Assembly (NCBI RefSeq): GCF_016026235.1
Contig: NZ_CP065613.1
DNA: 64,000 nucleotides
Strand: one strand, 5' to 3'
Source: Escherichia coli
GTDB lineage: Bacteria; Pseudomonadota; Gammaproteobacteria; Enterobacterales; Enterobacteriaceae
Each line of letters starts with the position of its first letter. Position 1 is the stretch's first letter. Below, in pieces: positions 9,307 to 44,556 of this stretch. The notes beneath the pieces are model-generated. The model searched no databases. It was not told the origin of the DNA and saw only the letters and a list, made by a program, of their open reading frames with translations. A program made the translations under genes and the position numbers.

Positions 9307-9594
9307 ATGCCATCCAGACTGTATAAACAGTTCATCCGTCATCTCGGTGAATCTGAATACATACGAATCCGCATATGGGAAGTGGAGCCTGCTGTATTGG
9401 GTAGCCAGCACAACTACAAATACAGCATGGCTTATGTCGTTGATGGCATGTGTGTGATGCGTTACGACAACGAACGGGGTAAAGGCGATCACAAACACAT
9501 TGGTAGTCAGGAAGTCAGCACCAGCTTTGTCACCATTGAACAACTGCTCGCTGATTTTCTGGCTGACGTTGAATCCATCCGCAGAGGTATCTGA
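9307..9594 (+). CDS. Hypothetical 95-aa protein, first gene of inverted two-gene cassette
   Basis: ORF on plus strand embedded in minus-strand phage operon; stop TGA 9592-9594 one nt before start of next gene. Confidence 0.5.
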   Translation: MPSRLYKQFIRHLGESEYIRIRIWEVEPAVLGSQHNYKYSMAYVVDGMCVMRYDNERGKGDHKHIGSQEVSTSFVTIEQLLADFLADVESIRRGI

Positions 9595-9595
9595 C

Positions 9596-9955
9596 ATGAG
9601 AACCGTAACAATCCGAATCGAGTCAATGGATAATTTCACGGCTGATGTGCTGTCTGCGTTCCAGGAAGCAGCTACCGGAGCAAAAGCAACCAGAGAAAAC
9701 GTTATTTCATTTCCTGACTGGCAAATGATGCATAAGGTACTGACACCAAAACGCATGGACATTCTGATGGCAATGACTGGTGCCGGAGAAATGTCCATCC
9801 GAAAAATTGCAGCCCTGGTTGGACGTGATGTAAAAAGCGTGCATACTGACGTGACCGCACTCATCAGCAACGGTTTACTGGAAAAAAGCGAGCGCGGAAC
9901 GTCATTCCCGTATGACGACATCCACTTTGATTTTACGCTGGGCAAGGCGGCGTAA
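9596..9955 (+). CDS. Putative HTH DNA-binding protein (119 aa), second gene of inverted cassette
   Basis: ATG at 9596; helix-turn-helix-like segment MSIRKIAALVGRDVKSVHTDVTALISNGLL. Confidence 0.5.
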   Translation: MRTVTIRIESMDNFTADVLSAFQEAATGAKATRENVISFPDWQMMHKVLTPKRMDILMAMTGAGEMSIRKIAALVGRDVKSVHTDVTALISNGLLEKSERGTSFPYDDIHFDFTLGKAA

Positions 9956-10172
9956 TTTTTCGTATATACCGTGCCGTCATTCCGGCGGCGCTTCACACTC
10001 CACAAAATCACGCCTGAACAACCACAACGGGCTGAAACATTCGTACGGATAGCCGTCACGCAGGTAAATGACTCGCTGCGTTTCAGACTCCCAGCGTATA
10101 ACGTGGACACGACGCCCCCTTCCGTCACGGAACCAGCGATTGAGGACTTGCATAAATTACCCGTAAACATTG

Positions 10173-10886
10173 TCACACCTTCCAGCCAGTAGCCTGAAAC
10201 AGGCCCATTCTCGGGTGATACCAGCGGGTACCACGCTGAACGGCACCACACATCATGTGATGAAACGCCTTCAGAAACGGTTCCACAGCAACAATTTCAC
10301 GACGTGCCAGTAATCCATCTGGCGTCAAAAATTCATGAGTGTCTGTCGGGATGTTGTATGCATTTACAAGCGTGCGACATTTCGCATCTGACATACCGGT
10401 TTTTGCTTTCAGCTGGCGATATCCGGCATAGCCCTCTCGAATGGTACCCTTTTTGATTTGCTCAACTGTTTCGGCTACGTGGCTGATTTTTTCTTCCACC
10501 TGAGTGATCCGTTTCTGCTGACGAACAGCCTCGAGCGCCATTGCGGCCACCATTTCGATTTCGCTCATTGGTTTGCGGATCTGTTCTTCCAGTTCGCGCC
10601 AGCGATCTACCAGGCGAGCAGTGAATTCAGGACAGAGCTGTGCGACGACAATGATGCTGTCGCGCTTACCTTGTTCTCCTTCAAACAGGTAATGCTCATA
10701 TTGAACTTTAAAACCTAAGTTATTGATTCTTTCGGAAACCTCAATTTGAGGAGACCGGACAACGCCACCTTTGGCTAATGTTTCAATAGTGCGTTTCACA
10801 TTGTCATGACGCTTACCCACCAGTTCTGCGATCTCAACGCTGGTCATGGATGCTTTGTCGTTAAAAATTGCGGTGTTCACTGCCAT
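10173..10886 (-). CDS. Phage antirepressor/regulatory protein (Rha/KilA-type N-domain with C-terminal domain)
   Basis: Start MAVNTAIFNDKASMTSVEIAELVGKRHDNVKRTIETL preceded by AAGGAG; N-terminal pRha-like motif. Confidence 0.6.
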   Translation of the reverse strand: MAVNTAIFNDKASMTSVEIAELVGKRHDNVKRTIETLAKGGVVRSPQIEVSERINNLGFKVQYEHYLFEGEQGKRDSIIVVAQLCPEFTARLVDRWRELEEQIRKPMSEIEMVAAMALEAVRQQKRITQVEEKISHVAETVEQIKKGTIREGYAGYRQLKAKTGMSDAKCRTLVNAYNIPTDTHEFLTPDGLLARREIVAVEPFLKAFHHMMCGAVQRGTRWYHPRMGLFQATGWKV

Positions 10887-10999: not shown

Positions 11000-11293
11000 A
11001 TGAAAGTTCAGGCCGTTGGTTTATTCTGGTTTCGCGATGCGATTCAGTATCATGAGCTCAAAAATATTTTTACTGATGCTGATGTGCTCTCCGACAGTTA
11101 CACCGAGTGGAAACACGACGCTGAAAAATTGATTAAGCGTGTCGAAAGAAGCGGGCAACGAGTTATTAAAGTTGAAGCGGATACAGCCGAGTTCATCACC
11201 TGGTGTACAAGCGAAGGCATTGGACTCAATGCCGAAGGTAGAATGCAGTTCGCATCCTTTAAGGCTTACCAACAACTTCTCAGCGAACGCTAA
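11000..11293 (+). CDS. Hypothetical prophage protein (97 aa)
   Basis: ATG at 11000 preceded by AAAGGAGG at optimal spacing; protein-like composition; opposite strand to surrounding operon. Confidence 0.45.
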   Translation: MKVQAVGLFWFRDAIQYHELKNIFTDADVLSDSYTEWKHDAEKLIKRVERSGQRVIKVEADTAEFITWCTSEGIGLNAEGRMQFASFKAYQQLLSER

Positions 11294-11363
11294 TGTGATT
11301 GGGGCAATCGAAATTGTTGCCCCATCGTATTTAATAGTTATTTTTTCGCTCATATCACCACCA

Positions 11364-11573
11364 TCACTTCTCATCCTCTGTGTGCGCTAAGCTTGGATGT
11401 GTATATGGAATGTTCGGATCCAGATGGCAGAGAATGGCAACATCCTCCGGAACGCCCCGCGTTTTCCACTTTCCAACTCCCTGACTACCACGAGGCTTTC
11501 CTTTCTTTGGGAACCTGCGGCCAATAGCGGCATTGGTTTTAAATTGAGTTTTTAATATTTCATAAAGGGTCAT
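11364..11573 (-). CDS. Putative Cro-like early regulator (divergent from repressor gene)
   Basis: 69-aa basic ORF transcribed divergently from the cI-like gene across a 110-bp repeat-containing spacer. Confidence 0.4.
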   Translation of the reverse strand: MTLYEILKTQFKTNAAIGRRFPKKGKPRGSQGVGKWKTRGVPEDVAILCHLDPNIPYTHPSLAHTEDEK

Positions 11574-44412: not shown

Positions 44413-44556
44413 AAGGCACCTTCCTGAAAACAAGTTGATCTCGTTATCGGCAAGAAGGGGGGAAACTTTATTGCTGATGCCACCCGCCGCGAAATTGAAA
44501 TAAAAAACCCGATGCGCAGATCATCGGGTTCATTTCAATTGAGGAAATCGGGAGAA

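Follow-up and report, generated by a model that had tools for sequence, protein, structure and literature searches.

What are two small genes that run antisense to the phage early operon around them, and how is that operon read across them? The locus lies in a 64,000-nt window of Escherichia coli DNA (contig NZ_CP065613.1; all coordinates are window positions), where an original prediction had placed two plus-strand genes, separated by a 1-nt gap and encoding proteins of 95 and 119 amino acids (aa), and had taken them for a toxin-antitoxin (TA)-type module carried as a prophage accessory cassette. The coordinates and orientation of both genes were confirmed, and the idea of an accessory TA module is supported by the protein families, the conserved pairing, the clean insertion and the cassette's own predicted promoter, operators and terminator, all described below (Table 1). 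The 95-aa protein belongs to the TumE toxin family; this family assignment is settled, public annotation already makes it for near-identical proteins, and the nested antisense architecture is the notable part. With high confidence, we regard the cassette as a type II TA module of the TumE-TumA superfamily, belonging to the subclass in which a short TumE (about 93–98 aa) is followed by a winged-helix HVO_A0114 partner. The toxicity of TumE, its neutralisation by TumA, the module's autoregulation and its biological role are presumed from homology and architecture.

A profile search of the 95-aa protein, which the original prediction had called for without recognising the family, matched Pfam PF20126 (TumE/DUF6516) with an independent E-value (i-E) of 2.4e-15 (56.7 bits; residues 16–89 on model positions 6–81 of 81), and this domain is present in 114/114 close TumE homologues. 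The partner, TumA, matched PF25212 (HVO_A0114; i-E 9.3e-25, residues 34–109 on model positions 5–84 of 84) and showed weak ArsR/MarR/Csa3-type winged-helix similarity. RefSeq names near-identical E. coli proteins 'toxin-antitoxin system TumE family protein' (WP_001141117.1) and 'HVO_A0114 family putative DNA-binding protein' (WP_001300492.1), and both genes have end-to-end matches in PHROG (tumE, phrog_16135, E 2e-58; tumA, E 3e-54). The structure prediction proposed together with the profile search was run with AlphaFold2 (AF2) and gave a TumE model of six strands and a C-terminal helix at a predicted local distance difference test (pLDDT) value of 94. Residues G60, D61, H62, H64, F74, L80 and F84 of TumE are invariant and H35, K38, Y39, G47, D54, N55, E56, G58, K59 and E69 near-invariant; the conserved motif YDNERGKGDHKHI sits on the hairpin between strands 4 and 5, and the Asp/His cluster may form a catalytic or metal-binding site. 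A fused-chain AF2 model of TumE-TumA, calculated from a 40-row paired alignment, reached a predicted template modelling score (pTM) of 0.83 despite a disordered 25-residue linker, with both domains at a pLDDT around 90 or higher, which suggests a confidently placed complex, though a fused-chain pTM is only indirect evidence for one. In this model, the N-terminal beta-alpha-beta unit of TumA is followed by a winged helix with its recognition helix at residues 79–91. Searching the PDB by sequence gave no match to TumE and, for TumA, just a weak ArsR match; in AFDB50, the search found unnamed or DUF6516-type small proteins only.

Both frames are under purifying selection: the ratio of nonsynonymous to synonymous substitution rates (dN/dS) is 0.07–0.14 for tumE and tumA against two diverged copies (dS 1.4–2.0). 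At the junction, the tumE stop codon TGA (9592–9594) is separated from the tumA ATG at 9596 by C9595 alone. A longer tumA version from a TTG at 9500 (9500..9955 in the list of open reading frames, ORFs) is unsupported, with homologue N-termini aligning at MRTVTI, that is, at ATG 9596, the start that RefSeq also uses. An opposite view of the locus would take a long minus-strand ORF, encoding a long antirepressor, as the sole real gene and tumE and tumA as spurious shadow ORFs. The annotation pipeline PGAP places a 317-aa 'Rha family' or an 'ash family' coding sequence (CDS) from window position 9342, and tumE is unlisted in the annotation of 3/8 RefSeq genomes with an at least 99.6%-identical cassette (NZ_CP011416.1, NZ_CM177020.1 and NZ_CM177010.1); in NZ_CP011416.1 (H1, L002; tumE at 6108–6395), a long Rha-family CDS overlaps the tumE start by 36 nt. 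We give this view practically no credence, and the conservation data have already refuted it: the tumE and tumA families are conserved in dozens of contexts without such an ORF, the low dN/dS values belong to the plus-strand frames, AF2 gave high-confidence models of both proteins, and related phages with an intact Rha gene miss the cassette as a clean 750-bp indel. Gene callers fail to list tumE in some genomes because of a stop-free antisense frame, described below, which is called as long 'ash/Rha family' CDSs.

The association of the two genes was surveyed in 73 IMG/VR loci plus others, amounting to 80 loci and 54 unique pairs. An HVO_A0114 partner lies directly downstream of tumE on the same strand in 75/80 loci, and the gap between the genes is −31 to +7 nt in 52/54 unique pairs. 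In Rhizobium sullae, a tumE → HVO_A0114 pair with a 4-nt overlap is sited between dnaB and alr, and in Thiothrix a pair with a 4-nt overlap lies beside an integrase in a P2/P4-like element. Pairwise identities of TumE and TumA correlate (r = 0.71; Mantel test, 0/2000 permutations as high). Identity is 46% for the toxin versus 35% for the partner, whose N-terminal 40 residues are most variable (25%), a pattern that is usual for TA pairs. TumE homologues form 114 close clusters and 1,993 clusters (50% identity) at E ≤ 1e-3; the subclass with a short toxin first and a winged-helix partner is large, about 2,000 clusters at 50% identity. Near other tumEA copies lie BrnT/BrnA genes (a Salmonella island, L089 5647–6163), a Gp49/HTH (HigBA-like) pair (an enteric chromosome, L081 4015–4606) and a ParE-like gene (an E. 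coli O121 prophage remnant, L001 10962–11156).

The family was characterised by Durairaj et al. (Nature 2023), who reported that DUF6516 proteins have a predicted fold without a PDB match, that six gammaproteobacterial TumE proteins are toxic in E. coli, each being neutralised by its cognate TumA, and that Allochromatium tepidum TumE, the only TumE so shown, lowered 35S-Met incorporation (PMC10584680). The window pair shares with these systems the family match, the two-gene unit with a DNA-binding partner and the siting on mobile elements; a co-fold is likewise predicted for it, and its fold seems to have no solved relative. It differs in having the toxin, of 95 aa, in first place and a 119-aa winged-helix protein of the HVO_A0114 family as partner. 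The published description (PMC10584680) mentions neither the operator architecture nor the leaderless layout of most relatives nor the open antisense frame, all of which are described below. A literature search on DUF6516 and HVO_A0114 returned only the 2023 TumE paper and a Halococcus genome note.

Several observations weigh against placing the pair in this superfamily or against parts of its presumed function. The validated pairs, from Allochromatium, Thiothrix, Thioploca, Crenothrix, Methylotuvimicrobium and Ectothiorhodospiraceae, belong to subcluster 1a, a subclass other than that of the window, and are longer by construct size (398–461-bp constructs) with small antitoxins; DUF6516 genes lie predominantly downstream of their partner; and an RNase activity of TumE was proposed, not demonstrated (PMC10584680). 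The TumE model of the window has six strands and one helix versus the published seven strands and two helices (PMC10584680). In addition, no NCBIfam model matches TumE, and PADLOC (PADLOC-DB v2) gave no model above noise, TumE reaching only HEC-01B at E 0.045, so that the pair figures in no catalogue of defence systems. In PADLOC-DB v2, TumA matches only the winged helix-turn-helix (HTH) part of CasR/Csa3 models, and it has no CARF domain.

The order of the window genes is familiar from other TA systems. In HigB-HigA and MqsR-MqsA, the toxin comes first and is tightly coupled to an HTH antitoxin, palindromes lie over the promoter, and the toxin acts on translation. The window pair has the same order of toxin and HTH antitoxin and the same tight coupling, and would share with them repression through promoter palindromes and translation as the toxin's target. 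No sequence or fold relation to these systems was found (searches of Pfam, NCBIfam and the PDB gave no RelE/HigB/MqsR match), and the TumA domain is an ArsR/MarR-like winged helix and not an XRE HTH.

Because the Stx1a phage Stx1_14040 (L006) is collinear with the window on both sides of the cassette, aligning to 8400–9233 and 9984–10882 with just 3 nt between the blocks, the cassette can be delimited as a 750-bp insert. A 77%-identical cassette (equivalent to window 9238–9996) is found in phage phiSTEC1589-Stx1c (L007) with flanks unrelated to those of the window. Judged by its predicted promoter, operators, Shine-Dalgarno sites and terminator, the pair is a discrete autonomous moron. Phage morons are autonomous accessory transcription units in prophages; in keeping with this, the window cassette has its own predicted promoter and terminator, is present or absent between collinear phages and is presumably expressed in the lysogen. 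What sets it apart from other morons is its inverted orientation within an operon whose genes are translationally coupled, a length that preserves the reading frame (750 bp), and a stop-free antisense frame apparently under selection. Most of the cassette is present in only 17/5,426 complete E. coli genomes, and when 50,697 phage records were searched with TumE by tblastn, phiSTEC1589-Stx1c was the sole phage hit.

The predicted tumE promoter is covered by two candidate operators, one overlapping the −35 element and the other enclosing the −10 element (Table 1). The pattern TGTTGTN8ACAAC occurs in the 64 kb only at these two sites, compared with an expectation of 0.03. At the equivalent promoter site, L007 reads TTGACA-17-TATCCT, and its operators have kept the half-sites while the spacers have diverged. 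A perfect 5+5 inverted repeat lies within 60 nt upstream of tumE in 52/54 unique cassettes versus 26% of random windows, and in 34 of those cassettes its right arm ends at most 2 nt from the tumE ATG. A sigma-70-like promoter whose −10 element ends 6–8 nt before the ATG is found in 24/54 cassettes versus 1% of random ATGs. As the ATG follows 6–8 nt after the −10 element, at the end of the operator palindrome, most relatives are predicted to have a leaderless tumE mRNA; the ATG at the palindrome end is seen in most non-enteric relatives, e.g. L038, L045, L053, L036, L037 and L050. With the same promoter geometry, the ATG of relatives falls on the predicted transcription start. In the enteric clade, which includes the window, tumE has gained a leader of 16–26 nt that carries a Shine-Dalgarno sequence; where relatives have the tumE ATG, the window reads AAG.

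The half-sites vary by lineage (TGTTG, TGATG, TATGG, GTATT and others), and they go with the residue that opens the TumA recognition helix, position 79: TGTTG/GTTGG is paired with Val, TGATG with Phe, and (T)ATGG/ATATG/GTAT with Tyr (plus Asn81). This covariation supports autoregulation by TumA, with a deduction to be made for phylogeny, which partly confounds it. The E. coli prophage copy would offer a convenient native model, with a predicted operator code linking V/F/Y79 to TGTTG/TGATG/TATGG and with D61, H62 and H64 as candidate catalytic residues.

Taken together with the characterised family, these features suggest how the module may work. In the lysogen, the sigma-70 promoter (9250–9278) would drive a bicistronic tumE-tumA mRNA, from which TumA would be translated using the Shine-Dalgarno sequence inside the tumE end. 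TumA would bind TumE directly and neutralise it, and a TumA dimer would occupy the two TGTTGT-N8-ACAAC operators over the −35 and −10 elements and thereby repress its own operon. If the supply of TumA fell, free TumE would inhibit translation, by homology with the validated family perhaps through a putative nuclease activity centred on the invariant D61/H62/H64. The module is inserted backwards between the DUF4222 gene and the isrK promoter of a lambdoid prophage early operon.

An alternative reading is that the pair is regulatory and non-toxic, with TumA acting as a phage transcription factor, e.g. for the promoter of the isrK-C4-antirepressor unit, and TumE as a cofactor or sensor that tunes TumA. 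The validated TumE pairs come from another subclass, mostly with the opposite gene order, operator O1 is just 9 nt from the isrK promoter −35, and the divergent isrK/C4 unit adjoins the cassette in 7/9 enteric cassette types. We consider this reading improbable, as the same pair occurs without isrK/C4 in Rhizobium, in Thiothrix, at chromosomal sites and in many non-enteric viral contigs, and as the spacing from O1 to the isrK −35 varies (1–20 nt), which argues against a fixed co-regulation geometry. Moreover, TumE has a confident Pfam match to a family of which 6/6 tested members are toxic, and its invariant Asp/His cluster suggests catalysis.

For a toxic pair, the likely role, by analogy, would be abortive-infection defence and/or stabilisation of the element. 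Somewhat less probable, yet with a substantial share of our expectation, is that the module serves mainly as a plasmid-style addiction or stabilisation element, or is a selfish hitch-hiker, without anti-phage function. No PADLOC model matches the pair, the literature search found no paper tying DUF6516 or TumE to phage defence, and some copies occupy chromosomal sites outside mobile elements (dnaB/alr in Rhizobium, near rpoD/mug in an enteric genome). Conversely, the pair is strongly enriched on prophages and P4-like satellites (73 IMG/VR loci) and occupies moron positions or sites beside integrases, as is typical of defence cargo, albeit circumstantial, and the rarity in E. coli (17/5,426) fits the turnover of accessory defence genes.

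How, then, is the early operon read across a gene pair that points the other way? The minus strand carries a long stop-free frame through the entire cassette (Table 1). Its coupled ATG at 10172–10170 lies in the arrangement TGA-CA-ATG, 2 nt past the stop of the upstream Ant gene and with GGAAGG ahead. The antisense frame that is codon-aligned with tumE has zero stops across tumE-tumA in the window type and in L007, L019, L021, L028, L029, L030 and L031, and the remaining two antisense frames have 7–18 stops. To gauge this, we used two null models that both leave the encoded proteins unchanged: in one, codons are drawn anew from those of neighbouring genes, and in the other, synonymous codons are permuted within each cassette. 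The neighbour-codon null predicts 2.4–4.9 stops, with a probability of zero stops, P(0), of 0.001–0.055 per lineage; the within-cassette permutation gives P(0) = 0.002–0.09 per lineage. The tumA gene uses TTA/CTA/TCA as its own codons 1–7 times, yet these triplets never fall in the phase in which the open frame goes on; in tumE they are absent in frame. One explanation of this triplet avoidance, that the mRNA protects itself from an RNase specific for certain codons, was rejected: the avoided phase is in frame in tumE and out of frame in tumA.

The frame is 535–724 codons long in most variants; it extends from a point past the tumA stop across the cassette, isrK and C4 and joins the Rha domain in frame. 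Its start (ATG or GTG) overlaps or is at most 2 nt from the stop of the upstream minus-strand gene in 6/7 assessable variants, and at the other end its stop codon adjoins or overlaps the next gene's start. Equivalent open frames occur in L007, L019, L021, L028–L031 and L086/L087.

Copies that are not embedded in an opposing operon behave differently. In L022 and L027, which lie beside a P4-type integrase, the antisense frame contains 5 stops each. As a prospective test, five further lineages were fetched. Four of them either point the same way as their neighbours or stand in wide intergenic spaces, and they have 2, 5, 3 and 4 stops; the fifth, from a P4-like island of Yersinia, lies backwards within a minus-strand operon, between AntA and downstream genes, and has 0. 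The Yersinia open frame extends over 1.6 kb and spans the promoter region and a second inverted gene; its ATG overlaps the last AntA codons, and its stop lies 15 nt before the ATG of the next gene. Because the Yersinia TumE is ~80% identical (by eye) to the L022/L027 group with its 5 stops, the contrast between embedded and non-embedded copies is not just phylogenetic. In total, the frame is stop-free in 9/9 embedded lineages and in 0/6 non-embedded ones, whose 2–5 stops are close to expectation (Fisher p about 2e-4).

Could the stop-free frame be an accident of codon usage or shared ancestry, without function? Codon-aligned antisense frames are generally stop-poor, a stop-free frame is also present in some high-GC relatives, and the antisense translation is junk-like, without a conserved start. 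We nevertheless consider an accident quite improbable. The P(0) values of 0.001–0.055 or 0.002–0.09 apply to each of 8 lineages with saturated dS, and tumA avoids TTA/CTA/TCA in the open-frame phase only. The embedded lineages are all free of stops versus 2–5 in the 6 non-embedded ones, and the embedded Yersinia copy stands against its ~80%-identical non-embedded relatives. Furthermore, in 7/8 assessable cases the frame starts at or at most 14 nt from the upstream stop, and it ends where the next gene begins. That the cassette contains a genuine protein gene in antisense is unlikely, given the saturated dS and the lack of a conserved start. On the best reading, early-operon transcripts are translated across the inverted insert, and selection acts on the open frame and not on the encoded protein sequence.

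Rho terminates untranslated and antisense transcription, and in P1 immI, c4 controls ant through translation-dependent Rho termination. We give an even chance to the proposal that selection keeps the antisense frame open as a 'bridge' ORF, whereby the strand opposite the module is translated so that ribosomes stay on the early transcript across the inverted moron. Such a bridge would spare the antirepressor and replication genes farther downstream Rho-dependent polarity or a loss of translational coupling. With lower probability, the open frame codes for a long isoform of the antirepressor that contains a 250-residue insert read antisense to the TA genes; in the cassette-less phage L006, an equivalent 340-aa ORF is annotated as Ant. 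The literature searched on bridge or antisense ORFs across morons yielded nothing beyond general work on Rho. If the bridge proposal holds generally, it would provide a design rule for nesting accessory genes backwards in operons and account for a source of mis-annotation (long 'ash/Rha family' CDSs); the stop-free frame also constitutes a clear, falsifiable case in the debate on long antisense ORFs.

The long ORF from ATG 10172 wholly overlaps the DUF4222 gene in another frame, and the annotation of L006 leaves DUF4222 out. The second inverted gene of the window, at 11000–11293, has 1 antisense stop versus 2.45 expected (P(0) = 0.06, not significant); it is almost wholly covered by a minus-strand ORF whose ATG overlaps the end of a cro-like gene.

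Table 1. Positions of the tumEA cassette, its predicted signals and the surrounding features in the window
Feature	Position	Strand	Remarks
tumE	9307..9594	+	ATG start, 95 aa; TumE/DUF6516 toxin-family protein
tumA	9596..9955	+	ATG start, 119 aa; candidate antitoxin and repressor: N-terminal beta-alpha-beta unit, then HVO_A0114 winged helix-turn-helix
Whole cassette	9234..9983	+	750-bp (3 x 250) insert relative to collinear cassette-less phage
Sigma-70-type promoter	9250..9278	+	−35 TGGACA (9250–9255), 17-nt spacer, TG-extended −10 TATTGT (9273–9278); predicted start near A9286; consensus scan
Candidate TumA operator O1	9239..9258	+	TGTTGT-N8-ACAACG; overlaps −35
Candidate TumA operator O2	9265..9288	+	CTTGTTGT-N8-ACAACAAG; encloses −10; perfect 8-nt inverted repeat
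tumE Shine-Dalgarno	9293..9299	+	AGAGGAA; 8–14 nt ahead of first ATG; sequence reading
tumA Shine-Dalgarno	9583..9587	+	AGAGG; within 3' end of tumE, 9–13 nt ahead of second ATG; sequence reading
Intrinsic-terminator-like hairpin	9933..9965	+	stem 9933–9955, then TTTTTCGTAT (T-run); overlaps tumA stop
Second GC-rich hairpin	9971..9991		cassette right edge; conserved in L007; holds DUF4222 stop codon
Stop-free frame	8389..10251	-	620-aa ORF; over DUF4222 (other frame), antisense through tumA and tumE, through isrK and C4, in frame into Rha domain
Rha-domain antirepressor ORF	8952→8389	-	phrog_821, E 2.5e-104; left of cassette
C4-type antisense RNA	9094→9008	-	Rfam RF01695, 83.4 bits vs gathering score 45; directly upstream of Rha-domain start 8952
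isrK-type Hfq-binding small RNA	9195→9119	-	Rfam RF01394, 63.6 bits vs gathering score 50; divergent from tumE
isrK promoter	9230–9202	-	−35 TTGATT (9230–9225), 17-nt spacer, −10 TACACT (9207–9202), start near 9195; read from sequence
DUF4222 gene	10153→9977	-	58 aa; right of cassette
Ant/Rha-like gene	10922→10173	-	beyond DUF4222
Second inverted gene	11000–11293	+	phrog_4753, function unknown
ORF over second inverted gene	11021–11374	-	117 aa
STnc100 small RNA	1705–1894	-	side observation
tRNA	2058–2130	-	side observation
ES036 small RNA	23832–23874	+	side observation
MicL small RNA	27811–28118	-	side observation
C0465 small RNA	44460–44537	+	side observation

The surroundings of the cassette are those of a prophage early operon, which continues downstream, still on the minus strand, with O-like and DnaC-like replication genes. 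The original prediction had placed the pair between two Rha-family genes; Rha-type genes do flank it, but they are not its immediate neighbours, as the DUF4222 gene and two small RNA genes intervene. The left edge of the cassette lies 3 nt upstream of the isrK −35 element, and the isrK/C4 unit is immediately upstream and divergent in the 7/9 enteric cassette types mentioned above (52–100% TumE identity), whereas the non-enteric and chromosomal tumEA copies (Rhizobium, Thiothrix, chromosomal sites and many non-enteric viral contigs) have no isrK/C4 neighbour. This recurrent back-to-back siting with the isrK-C4-antirepressor switch may reflect a recombination hot spot or point to functional cross-talk with prophage induction.

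The order of the isrK RNA, the C4-type RNA and the Rha-domain antirepressor is the same as in Gifsy-1 isrK-orf45-anrP (PMC4825925) and P1 immI (c4-icd-ant), a likeness that belongs to the neighbour and not to the cassette. Gifsy-1 has the layout isrK promoter-isrK-orf45-anrP, with antQ as the gene upstream of isrK (PMC4825925); unlike in the window, no TA pair divergent from the isrK promoter is described in the published Gifsy-1 and P1 loci. A PGAP 'ash family protein' or long 'Rha family' CDS covers the isrK/C4 stretch, so that these names partly cover RNA genes. In a Serratia-type viral contig (L019 1145–3902), four tandem isrK-C4 units lie upstream of tumEA, some of them with c4-a1b1 target matches. 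Farther from the cassette, the MicL and C0465 small RNA genes suggest that the window also takes in E. coli core chromosome beside the prophage.

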